DNA from: a virus
Reading direction: 5' to 3' (one strand)
Length of the DNA: 40,804 bases
UHGV virus genome: UHGV-0164601
The notes under the pieces are model-generated. The model made no database searches. It saw nothing but the letters and a program-made list of their open reading frames with translations, and had not been told where the DNA came from. Position numbers and translations under genes: made by a program. Of this stretch, positions 5,026 to 39,515 are shown one piece after another; the stretch's first letter is position 1, and each line of letters begins with the position of its first letter.

Positions 5026-5040
5026 TTACCGTTGAGGTAA
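5026..5040. promoter_or_regulatory. Operator-like palindrome TTACC-GTTGA-GGTAA overlapping the predicted start of the leftward early transcript
   Basis: Perfect 5-bp inverted half-sites with 5-bp spacer; same motif recurs at more than 10 operon starts. Confidence 0.55.
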
Positions 5041-14523: not shown

Positions 14524-14600
14524 TGGCGTGGCATGCAGGATTCGAACCTGCGACCAACCGCTTAGAAGGCGGTTGCTCTGTCCAACTGAGCTAATGCCAC
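14524..14600 (-). tRNA. tRNA-Arg, anticodon UCU (decodes AGA), phage-internal
   Basis: 77-nt cloverleaf read from the reverse complement: acceptor GTGGCAT/ATGCCAC, D-arm GCTC/GAGC, anticodon stem ACCGC/GCGGT with loop CTTCTAA, T-arm GCAGG-TTCGAAT-CCTGC, discriminator G, encoded CCA. Confidence 0.85.
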
Positions 14601-14922: not shown

Positions 14923-14937
14923 TTACCTGAAAGGTAA
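14923..14937. promoter_or_regulatory. Operator-like palindrome TTACC-TGAAA-GGTAA upstream of the portal operon
   Basis: Perfect copy; 44 bp upstream of ATGTGGTT (14982-14989). Confidence 0.5.
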
Positions 14938-15027
14938 TAATTCGCGCGTTAAATGTCAACTATCTACGATAAATAAATCATATGTGGTTAAATTGGTAAT
15001 AATTTAATTGCGTACGGAGTCATTGAT

Positions 15028-24241: not shown

Positions 24242-26988
24242 TGCCTGTTGTTCCTACTACATCCGGACGCCAGGTGCAAAGTCGTGGTGTGCAAACCGGT
24301 GGTTTTCAGACCTTCGATGTTCCTCAAGCAGGTCAGGTGCTGGCGAATGTCGCAGATCAGTATGCGGTGGCATATGGTGAAGCTAGGCAGAAAGCGAATG
24401 TTGCTATGGCCCAGGAGGCGTTACTGCAATTTAACCAATTTGCAGATGACCAGATTAACAACCCTGAAAATGGGCTGATTTCTAAACAGGGTAAAAACGC
24501 TCTTGGTCAGAGTGACGCTGTTATGAAAAATATGCAGGAAAGGGCTCAGGCATTATTAGGCTCAATTCCTGAAAGTGAGGAAAGGAATAAATTATCCTTT
24601 CAACTCCAGCAGTCTATGCAGTCTTATTACAATCAGGCACGTCGATATGAAGTTGGGCAGTTTCAGCAATTCCAAGATCAAACGTATTTGTCAGGAAATG
24701 CATTGGCTGTCACTCAGTCTGCGGGGCTATATAGCGATAACCAAGCATTTGTCGATTTAGCCAAGCAGCGATTTGAATCTATTGATCAATACGCTGATGC
24801 GCATGGGCTTCCTGATGAGTGGCGTGTTCAGCAGAAAACTCAGCTCAAGGAACAAATGGGGCAGCAAGCATGGATAGGAAATATCGCTCAAAAATACAAC
24901 GAGTTTCTTCAGGTTAATGGAGAGCCAGGGGATCTTGATGGTGTGAGTCGTGCAATATCACATGGTAATTCATTGGATGCTCGTGGTTTACGTAATAATA
25001 ACCCTGGCAATATTGAAGCGAGCAAATCTAACCCGTGGGAAGGTCAGATCGGTAGCGATGGACGTTTTGCAACGTTTGCTACCCCTGAGCATGGAATCCG
25101 CGCGTTGGGTAAAAATATGTTGTCTTACCAGCGTCAAGGCTATGACACCGTTAGCGAGATTGTTAATCGCTATGCTCCGGCTAGTGATGGTAATAATACT
25201 GATGCTTATATTAGGGCATTGTGTAGTGAGCTTGGTGTTGGGGAGAATGATCAGCTTGATATCTCTAACCCAAAGACACTAGCTGCTTTATGTGCTGGGA
25301 TTATTAAACACGAAAATGGCAGTATGCCTTATAGCACCGAACAGCTTGAAACTGGTATCTCGGCAGCCCTTGGTCTAACTAACCTTGATTCACCTAAGCG
25401 TTATACGGGCAATGCGGCATTTGACGCTATGAGCCCTCAAATGCAAATACAGGCATTGAGGCAGGCTAATGAGCTGAGAAATCAGTACCGCCAGCAGTAT
25501 GCGGACCAGCTTAGCACCGTAGTTAAAGATGCATATTCAGCCCTTGATGAAGGATTGAAACCTGAGAAGTTACCTTCTGAGGACGATTTTATCCGGGCCA
25601 ATGGTCCGCGCATTGGCGCTATGAAGTGGAAGGATATGCAGGCGCAGATACAATATGGAGGTGTCATTGGTGCCGCTAAAGACCTCACTCCAGAAGGACG
25701 ACAAGACATTCTTGAACGTTTACGTCCACAGGATCCAAACGCTCTTGGATTTGCAGCTAACCAGCAACGCTGGGAGAAAATGCAGGCCAAATTTAAAGAG
25801 ATGGATAGGGAGTGGGAGATTCAGCAGGGAAGAAACAGGTTCGTGTCTTCAATGCAAAATAACTTCCCGCTGGACCCTAACGACAAAAACAATCAGGCAG
25901 CGGTAGACCGTTATTTCGCGCAGGATATCGCGCCTTCGTTTTCCATATCTGATCCGCAGAGCATCAATACACTGGTCACCGTCACAACTAAAAGCGGCAT
26001 GATACCAACTCAGGTTAAAACAATGCTTAACAGTGGAGCAACATCAAGAGATCCTGCGCTGGTTGTCCCGATGGCAAAATTCTACGGTCAGTTATTCGAT
26101 AATAATCCGGCGGCAGCGGCAACACTTGATAAAAGTACGATGGCATTTTACGGCAAGGTTTACGATTATTCCCGCGCTGGCGTGCCGGAGGATAAGGCTG
26201 TTGATATGGCTTACAGCCAGGTGTTCCAACAGGATGACCGAATGAAACAGATGCTTTCCACTGCCATGCGAGACAAAAAATATGTCGCGGCGAGGGCAAC
26301 TGCTGCACAAAATAACGCCAGCAGTCTGACTTCCTTTGGTTCGTGGTCTCCGGATATTACCGATCCAGGAAAATCAAATGCGGCCTATCAGCGAGATTAC
26401 CAGACAATTTACGATGCTAACTTTGTACAGACAGGTGGCGATGCAGAACAGGCTGAGAAAATGACCAATGCCATGATCAGAACCACCTGGGGAGTTTCTA
26501 CAGTTAATGGCAAAGCAGAGGTTATGAAGTATGCACCTGAGGCATTGTACGGAGTAAATAATGGTGCTGGTAACTGGATACAGGGGCAGTGGGAGCAGGA
26601 AAAACGCGAGCTTAAATCAAAATCCTTTGGCGGTCCTCGCAGTGATACGGACTTAATACTTGTTTCTGATGGCCTTACGGCAAGGGATAGGAGTTATGCT
26701 GTTATGGTTTTACAGCCTGACGCAAACGGAGCGATAGAACCGAGAAATTATATTGGAGAAAATGGTCTCCCTGTTCGTTTCAAGCCGGATCAGCTGACAT
26801 CTCCAATGTACAGGCAAACCATTCAGTTCCAGCAACAGCGTGTTGATGAGGCTAGAGTGCGGAGAGAAGGCAATCCGCTGCCGCAGTTCAGCAATAAAGA
26901 TGGATATACTCCTCCAGATCTGACCAAACCATTCGGTTATGGTTCAGCCAATTACCTTCCGAGCAATATATACGCAGGGGGCAAATAA
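24241..26988 (+). CDS. Internal virion (core/ejection) protein B-like, 915 aa
   Basis: Second large core gene, translationally coupled; contains a conserved-looking central module NNPGNIEASKSNPWEGQIGSDGRFATFATPEHGIRALGKNML of unknown function. Confidence 0.5.
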   Translation: MPVVPTTSGRQVQSRGVQTGGFQTFDVPQAGQVLANVADQYAVAYGEARQKANVAMAQEALLQFNQFADDQINNPENGLISKQGKNALGQSDAVMKNMQERAQALLGSIPESEERNKLSFQLQQSMQSYYNQARRYEVGQFQQFQDQTYLSGNALAVTQSAGLYSDNQAFVDLAKQRFESIDQYADAHGLPDEWRVQQKTQLKEQMGQQAWIGNIAQKYNEFLQVNGEPGDLDGVSRAISHGNSLDARGLRNNNPGNIEASKSNPWEGQIGSDGRFATFATPEHGIRALGKNMLSYQRQGYDTVSEIVNRYAPASDGNNTDAYIRALCSELGVGENDQLDISNPKTLAALCAGIIKHENGSMPYSTEQLETGISAALGLTNLDSPKRYTGNAAFDAMSPQMQIQALRQANELRNQYRQQYADQLSTVVKDAYSALDEGLKPEKLPSEDDFIRANGPRIGAMKWKDMQAQIQYGGVIGAAKDLTPEGRQDILERLRPQDPNALGFAANQQRWEKMQAKFKEMDREWEIQQGRNRFVSSMQNNFPLDPNDKNNQAAVDRYFAQDIAPSFSISDPQSINTLVTVTTKSGMIPTQVKTMLNSGATSRDPALVVPMAKFYGQLFDNNPAAAATLDKSTMAFYGKVYDYSRAGVPEDKAVDMAYSQVFQQDDRMKQMLSTAMRDKKYVAARATAAQNNASSLTSFGSWSPDITDPGKSNAAYQRDYQTIYDANFVQTGGDAEQAEKMTNAMIRTTWGVSTVNGKAEVMKYAPEALYGVNNGAGNWIQGQWEQEKRELKSKSFGGPRSDTDLILVSDGLTARDRSYAVMVLQPDANGAIEPRNYIGENGLPVRFKPDQLTSPMYRQTIQFQQQRVDEARVRREGNPLPQFSNKDGYTPPDLTKPFGYGSANYLPSNIYAGGK

Positions 26989-29900
26989 TGCCGATATATG
27001 AACAGGATCCTAAAGAGTTGCTTGGCGAGGATATTCAGCAAATAGCAGCACCTGATGACAGTAATTTCTATATGGAAACACCTTCTTTGCTTTCTGCTGT
27101 GAACCCATTTACCAGTGATCAACGCGTTCAAAGGTCTAGACAAGCAGCATTTCGTATAGATAACACGCTGGGTAGCTTTATTGCCAGTGCTCCTTTCAGT
27201 CAGTTTGACAGGGTTGAAGGATATAACCCATTTGATAACGATGCAGCAGATATTAAAGGCTATGAAGATTTTGCAGATTCGTTTATCAACTCCGGTTCGC
27301 ATGAAGAAACAATGGCAATTAAACATCGAATCGATAAGCAAAGAACAGATAGAGAATATCTATCTGAAATGGGTGGTGCTGGTACTATTTCAAGCTTAGC
27401 AATGGGAATGATAGACCCGGTTAATGTGGCTGCAATGTTCATCCCTGTAGGGGCGGTAGCGCGTGGAGGAAGTATTGCTGAGACGGCAGGGCGTTTTGCC
27501 CTGGCGAATGCTGCTGGTGGGGGAGTATCAGAAGCCGCATTACAGGCCACTCAGGAAGCTCGCTCACCGATGGAGAGCGTATCGAACGTTGTTGTTGATG
27601 CTCTCGTTGGTGGGATCCTTGGTGCTGGTGCACAGCTACTTGCTGGACCTAGCGCGCGCGAGGCAGTGGTTAACTCAGTAGGTAATCATTTGCGAGGTAT
27701 GGATTCTCCTCAAAGCATTGGTGCAGCTCAGGTTTTCAATACCACACTCGATCAGGAACAGCTCGCTGGACTTGGACTTGCTAACAAAACGTTGAGTGTC
27801 ACTCCTGCTGGCCGCTTGGCGCAATCACCATCTCTTGTCTCCCGTCAGATTAACCAGCAGCTTGCCGAAAATAACTATTTCTTCGCCAAAAATGATGAGG
27901 GGTTGGCTACGTTTACGGCAGTCGAGACTAAGATTAAGCAATACGACGCCATGCTTTATAAGCAGATGGAAGCTACTCGTGATGCTTACCAGCAGTACAG
28001 CAAATCTGTCAGCGCCCGCGGCGTGAAGAGGATGAACTTTATTGATTTCAATGAAGCTGTTGGCATGGCTATGCGCCGTGGTGATCAGAGTGATATTCCT
28101 GAGGTTTCACAAGCAGCCGCCAGAATCCGCCCCATTTTTGAGACCACAAAAGCCCGTATGCAGGAATTGGGGATCCTTCCTGAGGATATCGATGTCGTGA
28201 CGGCGAAGAGTTATCTTCCCCGCATTTATAAGTTCGATAAGATACTTTCCGACCGCACTGAATTCAGAGGGCGAATTGCCAACTGGATACAAGGGATTAG
28301 TGCCAAAGGTGCTGACAAAGCAGGTCAGCGAATTGAAAAGATAAATTCATTGCTAAAAACTGCAGAGGAATCAGCACCGCGCGCTGATGCTCTCGCTAGT
28401 GAAATCGCTGAAGCGGAGAAATGGTCTGGTAAAAAAATTCTACTCATGGAAGAACTGGATAAACGAAATAAGCTTATATCTCAGGAGACTGACACACAGG
28501 CGCGTCTTACAAGAATAGAAAAAGAGTTGGCCGAGACTTCATCAGAAAAACTTCAGGCAAGAATGATGAAAGAAAGCTCTGACCTTAAAACACGCCTTGA
28601 TGATATAGCGCAGGCAAAGAGTGAGCTTCCTGTCTATCAGCGCCATATGGAGTTGCTGGATAATCCACGGAAATATCGTTCTGAGCTTCGCCGACTGCAA
28701 AAACGGGCAAATTCAACCACAAGGCTGAATGCAAGCCGCGAGCGAGCACTGAAGCAGATGGAGCCTCTATCCCGAGAGGAAGCAGAGGACGCTGCTGACG
28801 AGATCGTGAATAAAATAATAGGCGCACCTTCCGGGCTTGTACCAGCCGATATTATCCCAGAGAGACTCGTTGGTCGGGCTGGTTTCACTAAAAGCAGAAC
28901 GCTGCTTATTCCTGATGAGCGTATAGAAGATTTTCTTGAATCAGATGTTAACTACATCATGGAAAGTTATCTCCGGCAGGTGGCACCAGAAATTGAGCTG
29001 ACTGCGCAGTTTGGCCGTAAAGATATGGGGGAGCAAATCCGTCAGGTTAGTGAGGAATATACCCGGCTAATAAAAGAGGCTAAAACACCTAAACGACGTG
29101 CAGTTCTTGAGAAGCAACGGGAGGCTGATATTAGGGATATTACGGCTATGCGTGATCGACTGCTTGGTACTTACGGTGCACCTCAAGATCCACGCAGTTT
29201 CTTTGTTCGTGCCGGGCGAGTTGCTAGGAATATTAACTTCCTCCGTTTGCTTGGTGGAATGACTGTCTCCGCTGCAACTGATCTGATGCGACCGATGATG
29301 CAGCATGGCCTGAGAAAATCTCTCGGACCAATGGTAAGCATGCTTAAAAATATGGACTCAGTGAAAATTGCAACCAGGGATTTGCGAGAAATGGCAGTTG
29401 GGCTTGATTATGTCCTGTCTACGCGTACAAAGGCTATAGCGGATCTTACTGACCCCTATAGCCGGAGAAGCGCCGCTGAGCGAGGTCTGAACTGGATGAC
29501 GCAGAAATTCGGTAACTGGACGCTGATGAATCAGTGGAACAGCGCACTTAAATCATGGTCTGGGATGATAGTGCAGTCGAGGATACTTGACGCGGCTCGC
29601 CAAGTTTCTGCTGGTGGCACGCTCTCCAAAAGTGAAATGCGGAAGATGGCACAGGTCGGCATCAATGAAGATGTTCTGCGCCGAATCGGGGAGCAATTCG
29701 GGAAGCACGGAGAGGATATGGACGGGCTGTTAACCGGGCATAGTCATCTGTGGGATGACCGTTTCGCTAGAGAGATTTTCCAGTCTGCAGTGCTGAAAGA
29801 TGTAGACTCAGTGATTGTAACGCCTGGCGTAGGTGATACACCGCTGTTTTTTAGTAAAGAAGGCTGGAAGATGATCACGCAGTTCAAAACGTTTATCTTC

Positions 29901-34335: not shown

Positions 34336-37311
34336 ATGACGGTCTCAACCGAAGTTGACCACAACGAATACACAGGTAACGGCGTTACGACATCATTTCC
34401 GTATACCTTTAGGGTTTTCAAGGAATCTGATCTGGCAGTACAGGTGGTTGACCTTGACGAAAATATCGCTGTGCTGGCTCTTGATACTGATTACACTGTC
34501 ACTGGGGCTGGTGGATATAATGGCGGTAATGTAATTCTGTCGAAGGCGTTAGCTAACGGTTATCAGATTTCTATATCACGAGAGCTACCGGTTACGCAGG
34601 AAACTGATCTGCGAAATCAGGGAAAGTTTTTCGCTGAGGTGCATGAAGACGCGTTAGATAAGCTGACGATGCTGATACAGCAAGTCCGCAGTTGGTTTAG
34701 CCTGGCGCTGCGCAAACCATCATTTGTGGCAAACTATTACGATGCTTTGAATAATTACATCCGCAATTTGCGCGATCCTTCCAAGCCTCAAGATGCAGCT
34801 ACAAAGAATTATGTTGATAATATTGTTAATGTGAATATTAACAGGACATTACGGGTTCCAGATAATTTTATTGAACCACTTCCTCCAGTTCATTTACTGG
34901 AAGAAACTGTCATTGGTATCGTCAATGGTAAACCTATAGGTGTACCTGTGCCTTCTGGCAGTGCCGCAGATGTTCTTCTGCAATTATCTAGCGCAGGAGA
35001 AGGAAAAGGTGATGCATTAATTGGTGTAAGGCAGCCATTTGCCGGGGCTGTAACTATAACTCAGCATGAAAACAATGCTCTTTTCTTAAATGTAAAACAA
35101 TTCGGAGCAATTGGGGATGGGAAATATCATCCATTATCTGAGAGGTTTTCTTCAATTTCTGAAGCAAAATCCTTATATCCTTTTGTTGACTCATTATCTC
35201 AGTCAATAGACTGGGCCGCGTGGCAAGCTGCCATTAACACAGGAAAGGTTATTTATGGTACTGATAATGCGTATGTAATAACGGATACGTTAACACCTGT
35301 TTCTGGTGGTGGGATAATTGGTCTTGGTGTGGGCAAATGGGTCTCTGGATATACTGCAACATTTGCTCCTGATATTACCACAGGGACCACATTCCTGATG
35401 TACGGGGTAGGAAATAAAAAATATACTGTAGATTGTGTTTCTAATATGGATGTTAGTGGTGGTGTGGTTTCTAATCCATCTTCCGAAGACCCGTATACAA
35501 CAACGGCACCTGCGTCATCATATGATTTATTGGATTTTACTAACGGTGATGCTAATGGGACTACAAGAGCCACGCTTAAACCATTCTCTGCCGCAATATT
35601 GATGCCTGAGACAGGATGTGTTCGCCTTGAGAACTTTCGTGTTGTTCCATATTTCAATGGGCTGGATGGTTATAAAGACATTGCAAATACCGGTCTTGGC
35701 GATGAGTGGGATGTAGGTATTTGGTCACGTGCGTCTTTTGGCAATGAATACCGCAATTTGCAGGTGGTTGGATACTGGCGCAAGACGGCACTTTTAAAAA
35801 CGAACATTCCTGTATCTGGCACGCTGGCCGCTCAGGGCGAGGATGAAAACTATTATCACTGTAGATTCCAGGGATTCAAGGGTATTTCGATCCGCGCCCA
35901 TGATGTATTCCGAATTACAGCGGTAACGTCCAGCACTATCGAAATCCCATGGTCAGCAAGCCACACCTTCGAAACGTCCGGGGTTTTAAGATCTGGAGGC
36001 AGGAATTTCACTTATTCAGGATTATCCGTATCCGGTGATAAGTTAGTATTTACTGGAGTGTCTAACGCTTCTGAGGCAACAGTAGGTTCTACTATACGGC
36101 GAAATGACATAGATAACTTTGGTATGGCGGGAACGCAATTTTTCGATTGCTACATTACCAGCCTGTATCACCACACACATCTGCTTGCCACATCGCAATA
36201 CCTGTCTCAGCCATTCAGCCGGCCATCAGAGTGTATGGAGGTTTCAGGGGAACCAGTTCGCGGTGTACAGGTACATGCGGGAACCATTCAGGGATGGGAT
36301 GATGTTCTTATTCATCTGCATGACTGTGGAAATATGAACTTTTACAGTACATATTTCGAAAGCCAGCAAGCATATGTAACTATAAATGGTGGTAATGCTA
36401 TTGGTTATGGAGCACGTATGATAGCTTCCCGGCAATCAACAAGCTCATTACCATATGCAGCAGGGAATACTCGAGTGCTTAGAATGGTCGGGTGCTCTGA
36501 AGGCAATGGCGTTGACTGGGGTCCTGTATTTAACAACTATACAGGAGGAAGATATAATTCTGGAGACGGTGTATTTAACCCCCGCGATGCATTTATAGAC
36601 CATAAATCTCTTCCTGAGCAGTCAGGAGGTGAGTCAAGACTCGTATCACAAAAAGGAAATGCCAGAGTAGTATGTGGTGTTGGTAAAACTGTACTGCTTG
36701 GACCAACGTCAGGAGATTGTAATTTACAGAGCAATACTGGAAGTTTAAATATTAGAAGTGGGATAAGAGTAAGAATCGGTCACGCTGATGGAACAGACTG
36801 GTGGTTGGCAGATGCTAATAAAATAGCTCCTGTTGATGATAATGTTAAAGCTATTGGACAGCCATCAAACAGATGCTCTGTTATCTATGCAGGAACCGGG
36901 TCAATCAATACGTCAGATGAAACTCTTAAAACAAGATATGATATTCTTAATGCAGAGCGTAATGCCGCTATTGAAATAAAGTCAGTCATCTATAAATTTA
37001 AATTTAATGACTCAATTAATCACAAAGGAATTGAGTCGTCCAGGTATCATTTTGGCGTTGGCGCTCAAACCGTAGGGGATATTCTTAGAAAGCATGGTTT
37101 AAACCCTGAGCAATATGCTTTTTGGTGTTACGATGAATGGCCTGACGTATGGGATGAAGAGGTGATAACTGAAGAGAGCACAGATCCTGATACAGGTGAG
37201 AAAATTTATTCTCAATATAAAACAGGAGATATGATTCTTGTAAAAAAAGCAGGAGGACGCTACGGAATTCGTTATGACGAATTAGCCATGTTTATATTAA
37301 TGTCAATGTAA
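34336..37311 (+). CDS. Tailspike / tail fibre with central beta-helix (depolymerase-like) domain and C-terminal intramolecular chaperone (peptidase S74-like) domain
   Basis: N-terminal virion-attachment-like region (NEYTGNGVTTSFPYTF); pectate-lyase-type motif LNVKQFGAIGDGKYHP; C-terminal SDETLKTRYDILNAERNAAIEIKSV... resembling self-cleaving chaperone domains; GGAG before ATG 34336. Confidence 0.7.
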   Translation: MTVSTEVDHNEYTGNGVTTSFPYTFRVFKESDLAVQVVDLDENIAVLALDTDYTVTGAGGYNGGNVILSKALANGYQISISRELPVTQETDLRNQGKFFAEVHEDALDKLTMLIQQVRSWFSLALRKPSFVANYYDALNNYIRNLRDPSKPQDAATKNYVDNIVNVNINRTLRVPDNFIEPLPPVHLLEETVIGIVNGKPIGVPVPSGSAADVLLQLSSAGEGKGDALIGVRQPFAGAVTITQHENNALFLNVKQFGAIGDGKYHPLSERFSSISEAKSLYPFVDSLSQSIDWAAWQAAINTGKVIYGTDNAYVITDTLTPVSGGGIIGLGVGKWVSGYTATFAPDITTGTTFLMYGVGNKKYTVDCVSNMDVSGGVVSNPSSEDPYTTTAPASSYDLLDFTNGDANGTTRATLKPFSAAILMPETGCVRLENFRVVPYFNGLDGYKDIANTGLGDEWDVGIWSRASFGNEYRNLQVVGYWRKTALLKTNIPVSGTLAAQGEDENYYHCRFQGFKGISIRAHDVFRITAVTSSTIEIPWSASHTFETSGVLRSGGRNFTYSGLSVSGDKLVFTGVSNASEATVGSTIRRNDIDNFGMAGTQFFDCYITSLYHHTHLLATSQYLSQPFSRPSECMEVSGEPVRGVQVHAGTIQGWDDVLIHLHDCGNMNFYSTYFESQQAYVTINGGNAIGYGARMIASRQSTSSLPYAAGNTRVLRMVGCSEGNGVDWGPVFNNYTGGRYNSGDGVFNPRDAFIDHKSLPEQSGGESRLVSQKGNARVVCGVGKTVLLGPTSGDCNLQSNTGSLNIRSGIRVRIGHADGTDWWLADANKIAPVDDNVKAIGQPSNRCSVIYAGTGSINTSDETLKTRYDILNAERNAAIEIKSVIYKFKFNDSINHKGIESSRYHFGVGAQTVGDILRKHGLNPEQYAFWCYDEWPDVWDEEVITEESTDPDTGEKIYSQYKTGDMILVKKAGGRYGIRYDELAMFILMSM

Positions 37312-37323
37312 TAATAAATGCAA

Positions 37324-37355
37324 TAACCCCGAATAAAACAGCGGGGTTATTGTTA
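37324..37355 (+). terminator. Rho-independent terminator after the tailspike gene
   Basis: TAACCCCG-(10-nt loop)-CGGGGTTA hairpin followed by TTGTTATT. Confidence 0.6.
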
Positions 37356-37717
37356 TTATAATAATGCTCTTAACTTCTTAAATGATATTTATATGCACTT
37401 AGATTATTAAATCTATATTATGCCTGTTATTTATGTGTTCTGTTATATGTTTTGCAGGCACTGTTGGCAGCATTAAAGGAAATTGTATTTATGGCGAAAT
37501 AGCTGGTATCGTGTTTTTATTGTGCGTAAAAATAACAGACTGCATATATTATTGTATAAAGTTTTGGAAATGAAAACACTCAAACTTACCGCTGTGGATA
37601 TGTTTTGACCATCGCGAATTGGATTGGTAATATTGGGTAACAAAAAACCATAAATGGTTTATCATGCGTAATGCTTTACTGTTCAGGAGGTAGTTATGCA
37701 TATAAACGGTGGAAAAC

Positions 37718-38122
37718 ATGTCAGCTCAACTAACCAGTGAAACTTTAAATCAGTGGCTTAGCATGAGTTCTTTGGCGGCAGTGATAGCAGGAGTTCCTCC
37801 TGAGGTTGCTTTGGGGTCTTTGGCTGGGGCGGTGATTTTTGTTACCTCTGCGGTAGAGTATCCCATTCGTCGTCGCGTGCTCTTGTCGATGCTTAGCTTT
37901 CTCTGCGGACTTCTATTCTACAAACCAGCAGCATCAATTCTTATCGGCATAGCCAGCCTGATCCCTACAATCACACAGGATTCTTTCGAGAAAGGGATTG
38001 TTTTCTCTGCCGGTGCATTTGTGTCAGCAATCGTCGCTGTGCGAATTGGGATCTGGCTCTATCACCGTTCCGATAATCCACGCGAGTTAATTCCGGGGAG
38101 AAAAGACGATGGTAACTCATGA
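37718..38122 (+). CDS. Holin-like membrane protein (putative)
   Basis: About 135 aa with 3-4 predicted transmembrane helices, first gene of the lysis cassette; possible dual start (GTG 37709, ATG 37718). Confidence 0.5.
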   Translation: MSAQLTSETLNQWLSMSSLAAVIAGVPPEVALGSLAGAVIFVTSAVEYPIRRRVLLSMLSFLCGLLFYKPAASILIGIASLIPTITQDSFEKGIVFSAGAFVSAIVAVRIGIWLYHRSDNPRELIPGRKDDGNS

Positions 38123-38417
38123 GCTTTTTTTGCTTATCACCAATGCGGTTATTTGCGCCGGTATAGCAGTTCGAGTTGCCACATTTCGGAGAAACGGTTC
38201 TCAACACAGGCGATGGGGTGGGTGGCTTGCTTATTTCCTGATTGTTGCTGCGGCCAGCATTCCAGTTCGTGTCGCTTATGCAATCTGGTTACGCACGCCA
38301 ATGGTTGTGGATTTATCTGAGGTCATTATCAACGCTGTCATGCTTGCTGCAGTCATTAAAACGCGCGGTAACGTAGTTCAGATTTTCAAAATAACGAGGT
38401 CTAAACATGGAGATTAA
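38109..38417 (+). CDS. Second small membrane lysis protein (holin/antiholin-like, putative)
   Basis: 102 aa, three hydrophobic helices, ATG 38109 overlapping the upstream gene; directly precedes the endolysin. Confidence 0.45.
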
Positions 38418-39036
38418 ACAATTCCAGCGAGCTGCTGGTATCAGCGAGGAACTGGCCGCTCGCTGGTTCTCGCATATAACTTCTGCGATGAAAGAGTTTG
38501 GTATCAGCAAACCAGAAGATCAGGCAATGTTTATTGCTCAGGTCGGGCATGAGTCTGGAGGCTTCACCCGGTTGCAGGAAAATTTCAACTACAGCGTAAC
38601 CGGATTGGCTAACTTCGTTCGGGCTGGGCGTCTCACTCAGGGGCAGGCTAATGCACTTGGTCGCCGTGCTGGTGAACCACCATTGCCACTCGAGCGCCAG
38701 CGCGCGATCGCAAATCTGGTGTACAGCAAACGCATGGGGAACAATGCCCCTGGTGATGGCTGGAATTACCGTGGGCGCGGGCTTATCCAGATTACCGGTT
38801 TGAATAACTATCGTGACTGTGGAAACGGTCTGAAAGTTGACCTGCTGGAGAATCCTGAACTGTTGGCGCAGGACGAATACGCGGCTCGTAGCGCGGCGTG
38901 GTTCTTCTCCAGCAAAGGTTGCATGAAGTATACCGGAGATATTGCACGTGTAACTCTGCTTATCAATGGTGGCCGGAACGGCATTGATGACCGGCGCGCG
39001 CGATACATCACTGCCAGTAAGGTGCTGGCGGTATGA
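38407..39036 (+). CDS. Endolysin, glycoside hydrolase family 19 (chitinase-like lysozyme)
   Basis: GH19 signatures [12 protein letters not shown] and [16 protein letters not shown]; position between the membrane lysis proteins and the spanins. Confidence 0.8.
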
Positions 39037-39515
39037 TCTGGGCATTCGCAAAAGCATACTGGAAACAGTTGGTTATCATGGCGATGCTTGCTGTTCTGGT
39101 CATATCAGGAGTTGTAGCCTGGAATGCACACGGCAGTCGTCAGTACGATGCCGGGTATGCGCAGGCGAAGGAAGACCGCAAAGCTGAAGATGAGATAGTT
39201 CGTCAGCACTACGAACAGGAGAAATCGATCAATGAACGTGAAGCGCAGCAGAGGATCGACCAGGCGCGCAATGATTCTCTTGATGCTGCCGCTCGCGCTG
39301 GCCGGTTGCAGCAACAACTCTTTGCCATCCGTGAGCAGCTCAGGCAGTATAACGCCATTGTCGGCGCTGGGACGTCAGCCGCAGACACCGGAGTTTTGCT
39401 TGCCGACGTGCTCAGCAAATCTCTCGAGAGAAACAGACAACTGGCAGAGTATGCTGACCGGGCAGCCGAAGCCGGAAGAGTCTGCGAAAAACAATACGAC
39501 ACCCTGACCAGATAG
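39033..39515 (+). CDS. Rz-like inner-membrane spanin (i-spanin)
   Basis: N-terminal transmembrane helix ([18 protein letters not shown]) then Gln/Arg/Glu-rich coiled coil; ATGA-coupled to the endolysin stop. Confidence 0.65.
39271..39507 (+). CDS. Rz1-like outer-membrane lipoprotein spanin (o-spanin), fully embedded in the +1 frame of the Rz-like gene
   Basis: [13 protein letters not shown] lipobox signal followed by a Pro/Ser-rich short mature peptide, entirely inside 39033-39515. Confidence 0.5.
   Translation: MILLMLPLALAGCSNNSLPSVSSSGSITPLSALGRQPQTPEFCLPTCSANLSRETDNWQSMLTGQPKPEESAKNNTTP

Follow-up and report, generated by a model that had tools for sequence, protein, structure and literature searches.

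The 40,804-nucleotide stretch analysed here (UHGV virus genome UHGV-0164601; hereafter the window, meaning the whole of it) is a complete epsilon15-like (Uetakevirus) prophage of Escherichia coli. Between its tailspike gene (34336-37311) and its lysis cassette lies a conserved RNA hairpin of about 57 nucleotides (nt; 37654-37710, plus strand), which holds within its own 3' half a strong Shine-Dalgarno (SD) motif together with the AUG codon of a short upstream open reading frame (uORF). A sequence-only reading of this DNA had drawn attention to the SD and the uORF as a possible leader peptide ahead of the putative holin gene gp23, and missed the main feature, namely that both sit inside a conserved, covarying RNA hairpin. 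The best-supported interpretation, resting on folding and comparative modelling, is that the hairpin is a cis-acting RNA element of the lysis-operon leader, masking a strong ribosome-loading site directly 5' of the weakly initiated gp23; it, and no leader peptide, probably regulates that gene. The element has been flagged previously only as a predicted ribonuclease III (RNase III) site in one GenBank record.

A conserved RNA hairpin in the lysis leader

In the window the hairpin consists of a main stem of 22 pairs (37657-37707) with one bulged C (37663), and its minimum free energy (MFE) is -18.2 kcal/mol; AGGAGG is located just 3' of the apex, whereas the 3' arm contains the uORF ATG. The stretch from the small palindrome at the base of the 5' arm to the gp23 ATG is highly conserved at the nucleotide level. 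The homologous leader of phage epsilon15 has the same architecture, with 24 pairs, -35.1 kcal/mol and a z-score of -4.8 against shuffles, whereas the window clade has lost 1 nt from the 3' arm, carries the bulged C and is about half as stable.

How widespread is this structure among the relatives of gp23? The leaders of 257 loci encoding such relatives were taken from IMG/VR contigs, from named phages of Escherichia, Salmonella and Enterobacter, and, with a single genome apiece, from Citrobacter braakii, Citrobacter werkmanii, Klebsiella, Kluyvera, Scandinavium and Pseudescherichia, and they reduce to 81 distinct sequences whose host genera are Escherichia, Salmonella, Citrobacter, Klebsiella, Kluyvera, Scandinavium and Pseudescherichia. 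When these 81 are folded one by one, that is, independently of any alignment, nearly all form the same hairpin, with a median of 22 pairs and at least 20 pairs in 66. A covariance model built from 19 epsilon15-type leaders aligns 78 plus-strand leaders, and its sole match in the window covers 37648-37720 (42 bits, E = 8e-9).

Pairs were counted in a model-based, plus-strand-only alignment (A5; 75 distinct rows). Here, 90.4% of the stem cells are paired, as opposed to 37-51% when the partners are slid by one to three columns, and the covariation score drops from 0.255 to 0.055-0.097 on the same treatment; two-sided changes occur at 11 of the 24 pairs (one of them being GC in 46 rows, AU in 14 and GU in 11), none of 500 shuffles matched the observed covariation values and a recount with a separate script agreed, although these covariation numbers overstate independence because A5 was fitted to the model and its sequences are related. 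The structure is also strand specific: the mean folding energy is -22.0 kcal/mol for the sense RNA vs -9.5 kcal/mol for the antisense, the sense strand being the more stable in 80 of the 81 leaders, and many of the stem pairs are G.U. Such an asymmetry is to be expected of many G.U pairs, and it argues for an RNA made from the sense strand and not for a DNA palindrome.

Not every tool recovered the stem. RNAalifold, run on a plain MAFFT alignment with misplaced indels, returned only a UCACC/GGUGG pairing, and an Rfam search of the window and epsilon15 with E values up to 10 gave no credible match over the hairpin. The GenBank record of epsilon15 (AY150271.2) labels the homologous stretch at 24755-24817, upstream of gp23 starting at 24824, as 'RNaseIII, mRNA processing'. 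Alignments and the covariance-model match agree that this is a homologous element in the same place relative to gp23, with the same hairpin. The label mentions neither the embedded SD and AUG nor the covariation; it is attached to five hairpins in total and appears to be a computational prediction. The other four features so labelled in epsilon15 (locus L259 in our set) lie at 2720-2819, 26753-26789, 26874-26912 and 28297-28335. Text searches of the literature on RNase III, holin or uORF in these phages retrieved nothing relevant.

The masked start site and the short upstream ORF

The uORF (MHINGGKHVSSTNQ; 37696-37740, plus strand) has 14 codons and is read in the +1 frame relative to gp23, its TGA (37738-37740) ending 20 nt past the gp23 ATG at 37718. 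Its SD, AGGAGG (37685-37690), is separated from the ATG by 5 nt and pairs with CUUU/UAC of the 5' arm. The SD of gp23 itself, GGTGG (37708-37712), begins 1 nt past the main stem and includes a GTG (37709) that is in frame with ATG 37718, the uORF being in the +1 frame relative to both. The two sites differ greatly in strength, for in the window the calculated duplex with the anti-SD is worth -11.6 kcal/mol for the uORF and -5.1 kcal/mol for gp23, and over the 75 relatives keeping the uORF ATG the means are -10.4 and -5.3 kcal/mol, the uORF site being the stronger in 73 of the 75. They differ also in accessibility. In the folded window leader the probability of being unpaired is only 0.003 for the uORF AUG and 0.19 for its SD, and it is 0.83 for the gp23 AUG. 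Hence, when the uORF was earlier described as strongly initiated, this was right as far as the SD sequence goes but not for the folded leader.

Strong SD and ATG are kept together in 75 of the 81 distinct leaders, across all seven host genera, with a spacing of 5-7 nt. Relative to gp23 the ATG stands at -23 in 62 leaders, where it opens a 12-codon ORF in the +2 frame, at -22 in 11 leaders (the window clade plus L243), where it opens the 14-codon ORF in the +1 frame, and at -25 in two; in none of the 75 is it in frame with gp23. The stop codon falls 13 nt past the gp23 ATG in the epsilon15 type and 4-20 nt before it in phiV10 and in leaders L220 and L055. Lengths range from 1 to 17 codons, with 6 in phiV10, 3 in L220 and a single one (AUG-UGA) in L055. 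Within the hairpin, moreover, neither the U nor the G of the AUG varies, although the bases opposite them do (A to G and U to C, respectively), giving G.U in nine rows and no G-C at the former, and U.G in 61, C-G in 11 and U-A in two at the latter. Comparison of these leaders suggests that the start site behaves as if selected. Because the independent events are few, however, we place the probability of a real translational role for it a shade below one half.

What is conserved is the start, not the product. After codon 2 the peptide sequence varies between clades and is encoded in two reading frames, the one-base difference in the 3' arm having the consequence that the window and epsilon15 clades encode different peptides after the first few codons. 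A consensus scan found no terminator-like site in 37250-37800 that could serve leader-peptide attenuation, and the hairpin is followed by GGUGGAAAACAUG, which lacks a U-run. Given the two frames, the reduction to six, three or one codons and the loss of the ORF in four lineages, the comparison of sequences excludes a functional peptide and gives no support to a leader peptide in the usual sense. The earlier proposal of a leader peptide controlling the holin thus survives in one half: the start site is conserved, out of frame and followed by a stop near the gp23 start, but the peptide is unconserved and no attenuation structure accompanies it. Likewise, conservation in related phages, which had been proposed as a check on the uORF, held for its SD and ATG but not for its peptide.

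One group of leaders from IMG/VR (L106, L107 and L113) keeps the base of the hairpin and has lost both SD and AUG; here gp23 gains an AGGAG of its own (-7.4 kcal/mol), stronger than the gp23 SD of any leader that keeps the uORF. Between -68 and -1 of gp23 in these leaders the upper half of the hairpin has given way to a stem of unrelated sequence, UAGUCA...UGACUG, that contains a 4x4 internal loop, which amounts to a natural 'swap' experiment.

Could the arrangement of starts be explained without any masked site? One explanation is a dual-start holin/antiholin pair of the lambda S type, in which GTG 37709 and ATG 37718 would yield two forms of gp23 in a ratio set by the upstream structure. An in-frame GTG at -9 in 76 of the 81 leaders, an in-frame ATG at -12 in 14 of them and a hairpin immediately upstream would suit it. 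Yet the added residues are M-E-N here and V-T, V-D, V-I and the like elsewhere, with no residue conserved or positively charged; the GTG sits inside GGTGG, which is the SD of gp23, with no usable SD of its own, the nearest real one being 18 nt away; and gp23 starts at ATG 37718, or its equivalent, in every relative's annotation. The dual start that the sequence-only reading had suggested is therefore hardly credible. A second explanation is an artefact, a 1-nt sequencing error having split the strong ribosome-binding site (RBS) from the holin frame, the very frameshift that had been raised as a possible objection to the uORF. The window clade does correspond to the epsilon15 clade minus 1 nt in the 3' arm, but the same state recurs in all distinct window-clade leaders from many assemblies, the ATG, at -22 or -23, is out of frame whether the base is there or not, and in 68 of the 81 leaders fusion is prevented by a TAA at -15 in the gp23 frame. 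The chance of such an error is negligible, and by the comparative data it is already refuted.

A possible gate on lysis-gene expression

With somewhat better than even confidence we regard the hairpin as the selected unit, acting as a post-transcriptional gate on lysis-gene expression with a masked strong SD and AUG. As long as the stem is intact, the strong site would be unusable and gp23 would be translated from the weak GGUGG only. Once the stem is removed or opened, be it by RNase III cleavage, as the annotators of epsilon15 predicted, or in transcripts starting inside the 5' arm, ribosomes could load at the strong site, translate the short ORF, which is out of frame, past the start of gp23 and come to a stop no more than about 20 nt from it. 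Translation of gp23 would then be set by coupling or by occlusion, the peptide itself being without function. The hairpin with its conservation, covariation and strand specificity, the masking of the strong site, the retention of SD and AUG and the weakness of the gp23 SD are shown here; the working of the gate, the means of its opening and the sign of its net effect on gp23 are inferences.

Besides the limited independence of the covariation counts, several observations weigh against this view. The window hairpin, taken alone, is only marginally better than its shuffles (z-score -1.67). At least four lineages can do without the uORF, the ATG being absent in L042, L046 (AUA, pairing kept), L056 (UUG) and L106/L107/L113, and L055 is reduced to AUG-UGA. 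The relatives are close, so that the conservation of SD and AUG could have been inherited along with the stem. An RNase III cut in mid-stem, probably at the AUG or close by, would be expected to destroy the uORF and not to expose it. Finally, promoter scans disagree: in the window the candidates lie upstream, in phiV10 the candidate is inside the stem, and epsilon15 has none.

It is possible, though we consider it clearly the less probable case, that the hairpin is purely a processing or stability element, serving as a target of RNase III or as a 5' stem-loop by which the lysis mRNA is protected or set apart from the long late transcript, the SD-like run and the AUG never being used and persisting only as an arm of the stem. 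The stem is of suitable length for E. coli RNase III, the substrates of which have about 20 base pairs (bp) or more of mostly uninterrupted double-stranded RNA, the window stem having 22 pairs, that of epsilon15 24, and those of 66 of the 81 leaders 20 or more. This function was the one predicted by the epsilon15 annotators, albeit apparently as a computational guess applied to five hairpins. The AUG is almost never unpaired, the peptide is unconserved, and the ORF is lost or down to 1-6 codons in several lineages; moreover, the L107 variant forms two stems of about 10 bp around its 4x4 internal loop, like the T7 RNase III sites. What a mere processing site leaves unexplained is the invariable purine run 3' of the apex, optimally spaced from an AUG, the constancy of the AUG letters in spite of their varying partners, and the fact that gp23 has a weak SD in all leaders but those that have lost the uORF site.

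A decidedly unlikely alternative borrows the logic of T4 gene e. A promoter inside the 5' arm would give rise to transcripts that lack this arm and begin just upstream of the strong SD, whereas read-through transcripts would fold and be silent. The 5' arm does contain -10-like hexamers, TATGAT or, in phiV10, TATAAT and, in some cousins, CATAAT, which are the wobble complement of UUAUG. A TTAACC-17-TATAAT (10 of 12 consensus positions) falls exactly in the 5' arm of phiV10, and GTAACA-17-TATCAT occurs in the window at 37637-37665. Many relatives have a divergent gene upstream, or an unrelated flank, for which reason the conserved module, from the recurrent box described below onward, should bring its own promoter; and at two other operon starts the box is followed 9-12 nt on by a -10-like hexamer. 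On the other side, the -35 elements are poor, epsilon15 has no promoter call, the window hexamer at the position of TATGAT is CGTAAT with a G at -11, the spacing between box and hexamer is inconstant, and a -10-like hexamer arises automatically as the complement of UUAUG. The covariation between the arms implies, too, that both are present in at least a part of the functional transcripts.

The proposed gate can be extended to a bolder and doubtful proposal, according to which epsilon15-like phages would time lysis through a previously undescribed two-part riboregulator. A locked strong loading site and a content-free mini-ORF would feed the weak holin start, the cue being RNase III, a late transcript starting in the stem or a phage protein, and the YCATATNTGGTT box being a genome-wide signal at about six operon starts.

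Comparison with known leaders

Several well-studied systems share one or another of these features. In the RNase III hairpins of T7-like phages and in the lambda N leader, a stem of about two helical turns stands upstream of a gene, and its removal can alter downstream translation. In contrast to the T7 sites, the lysis-leader stem is almost uninterrupted in most members and lacks a central internal loop, SD and AUG are built into it, and cleavage is predicted only. The T4 lysozyme gene e has its RBS sequestered in early transcripts and late promoters inside the hairpin. The likeness is that of a lysis-gene leader stem hiding an RBS, with -10-like hexamers in its 5' arm; here, however, the hidden site serves a short out-of-frame ORF, and the internal promoter is a weak consensus match. 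Lambda S and P22 13 carry a dual-start motif with an sdi stem-loop at the 5' end of the holin gene. They too have an RNA structure at that end that could tune initiation, but gp23 lacks a pair of functional in-frame starts separated by a charged residue, and its structure lies upstream of the gp23 RBS, not over it. Short bacterial uORFs that act by coupling or occlusion are distinguished by a strong SD and AUG, a stop near the downstream start and a coding content that does not matter. The lysis-leader uORF shares the conserved RBS and the stop near the downstream start, and on this model its translation would affect gp23, yet, unlike coupling uORFs in general, it has its start locked in a stable, covarying hairpin. 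On these comparisons the element would belong to the structured leaders that control a phage lysis gene.

The timing of lysis decides phage burst size, and only in a few model phages (lambda S, T4 e/t) have the post-transcriptional controls on holin genes been worked out in detail. The leader described here is a well-conserved structured RNA without an Rfam family, standing before the two-holin cassette of widespread temperate podoviruses of E. coli, Salmonella, Klebsiella and relatives; its stem, SD and AUG offer a concrete, mutable target for studying the means by which these phages hold back or delay the expression of their holins. For annotation there is a warning as well, in that a mini-ORF with a strong RBS may turn out to form an arm of a regulatory hairpin. 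Should the element serve in RNase III processing or stability alone, the finding would be an ordinary one.

Repressor operators and the recurrent box

Immediately upstream of the hairpin lie GGTAAT-ATTG-GGTAAC (37626-37641; GGTAAT at 37626-37631, GGTAAC at 37636-37641) and the palindrome AAACCAT-AA-ATGGTTT (37645-37660), the 3' half of which forms the base of the hairpin 5' arm. On direct reading, all the elements that the sequence-only reading had listed (AT-rich gap, half-sites, palindrome, RBS, uORF and starts) were found where it had placed them, and each of them goes beyond what chance would give. GGTAAY occurs 77 times in the window against 26.9 +/- 5 expected, a three-fold excess, and most copies form inverted repeats TTACC-N5-GGTAA (14 against 0.63 expected) that coincide with the 'repressor' binding sites annotated in epsilon15 (AY150271.2). 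In the window these lie at 5026, 5088, 5800, 5848, 8131, 8193, 11715, 11733, 14923, 31963, 33004, 33097 and 34217, and a fourteenth match, at 37842 inside gp23 and with one mismatch, is probably due to chance. From this agreement with epsilon15, repressor operators appear to be scattered before many operons, beyond the immunity region.

The two copies at 37626-37641 are the same hexamer as in the epsilon15-like operator ATTACC-N5-GGTAAT, but they are direct, not inverted. Calling them direct half-sites was thus apt as regards the match to one half of this operator, but no complete TTACC-N5-GGTAA is present within 37356-37740, the 14 window sites all lying elsewhere; in epsilon15-type leaders a complete operator stands about 45 nt upstream of the hairpin (epsilon15 24704). 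The first GGTAAT doubles as the -10 element of a candidate sigma-70 promoter on the plus strand (37605-37633; TTGACC, 17 nt, TGgTAATAT; 9 of 12 matches plus an extended -10 TG), with a predicted transcription start near 37640. A cousin leader has TCGACA-16-GACAAT at the equivalent place.

The palindrome is a member of a recurrent box, YCATATNTGGTT. With up to two mismatches the core of the palindrome occurs 11 times in the window against 2.2 expected. The box has its exact match here, at 37646, and related copies elsewhere, so that its sites are 6207, 8176, 14978, 33048, 34260 and 37648 (in epsilon15/L259 at 33751, 35952, 2987, 19939 and 24750). It stands 25-40 nt downstream of operators, often with another GGTAAT 5 nt on, where rightward transcription units, about six in all, begin again beyond islands of accessory genes, and continues into a long hairpin only at the lysis genes. 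The box may act as part of a promoter, as the site of a regulator or as a signal in the RNA. Readings of it as a MerR-type or class II activator site were tried by eye and abandoned. That the small palindrome might pair with itself in the RNA, in competition with the base of the hairpin, was also considered and set aside as weak, for such a helix is present in only one per-sequence MFE structure (L044).

It is these elements that invite an explanation at the level of DNA alone, in which the palindrome and GGTAAT/GGTAAC would be protein-binding sites for the repressor or another regulator and RNA structure would be irrelevant. The identity of GGTAAT with an operator half-site and the occurrence of the box at some six operon starts without a long hairpin speak for it. 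Nevertheless, it is very unlikely, for the locus lacks the complete operator and the explanation fails on the compensatory changes between arms 20-50 nt apart, on the G.U pairing and on the 12.5 kcal/mol advantage of the sense strand. The DNA and RNA readings are compatible for 37626-37660, but not for 37661-37707.

Lysis cassette, tailspike module and prophage setting

All genes of the lysis cassette are on the plus strand. The gp23-like putative holin (37718-38122, 134 amino acids) matches Pfam Phage_holin_8 (1.5e-11) and the holin family PHROG 198, and it overlaps by 14 nt a gp24-like holin of 102 amino acids (38109-38417; Pfam Phage_holin_3_7, 5.9e-27; PHROG 217). They are followed by a GH19 endolysin (38407-39036; Pfam Glyco_hydro_19 and annotation) and an Rz-like i-spanin of the DUF2514 type (39033-39515), assigned by domain match, ORF list and the epsilon15 annotation, in which an Rz1 with the lipobox LAGC is embedded (39232-39507).

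Upstream, the tailspike-like ORF (34336-37311) is separated from ATG 37718 by 406 bp. It is followed on the plus strand by a terminator-like hairpin (37320-37353; 12-bp stem, 10-nt loop, -18.5 kcal/mol) and then by the U/A-rich tail UUAUUAUAAU. This hairpin, with its loop of more than 8 nt and its imperfect T-run, was not called by the consensus terminator scan. The AT-rich spacer that comes next (37354-37620) belongs to the tailspike module and takes up the slot in which relatives have 'moron' genes for O-antigen modification. The GC content of 37356-37620 is 29.8%, as compared with 48.1% window-wide, which places it among the lowest 0.35% of 265-nt windows. This AT-rich sequence occurs only alongside this tailspike type, in 11 E. 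coli genomes and phage YDC107_2. In relatives, the same slot holds oac, gtrA, acyltransferase genes, small ORFs or other accessory genes, often on the opposite strand, and homology to other Uetakeviruses begins only at about 37621-37646. The Prokaryotic Genome Annotation Pipeline (PGAP) annotated no coding sequence within the gap, and we treat the spacer as an empty or decayed accessory-gene slot. The tailspike C-terminus, the terminator and the spacer form a single exchangeable module, with a recombination joint to the lysis module at about 37621-37646, just 5' of the box.

Three small ORFs of 46-56 amino acids lie in the gap, at 37433-37573 (plus strand), 37473-37643 (minus) and 37549-37719 (minus), one of which is annotated as a minus-strand 'hypothetical protein' in phage YDC107_2, antisense to the hairpin. 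As genes they were rejected; having neither an RBS nor a PGAP call nor conservation beyond the tailspike module, they are probably spurious.

To the right of the prophage lie yfgI and yfgH; its left-hand neighbour in a lysogen closely related to this one is guaA. A tRNA-Arg gene (anticodon TCT; 14524-14600, minus strand) is located between the terminase genes and the portal operon. Near it, at about 14923-14975 on the minus strand (about 2932-2985 in epsilon15/L259), a conserved leftward consensus promoter, TTGACA-17-TACCTT, has its -10 element inside an operator palindrome and presumably provides repressor-controlled expression of a minus-strand accessory gene and tRNA island.

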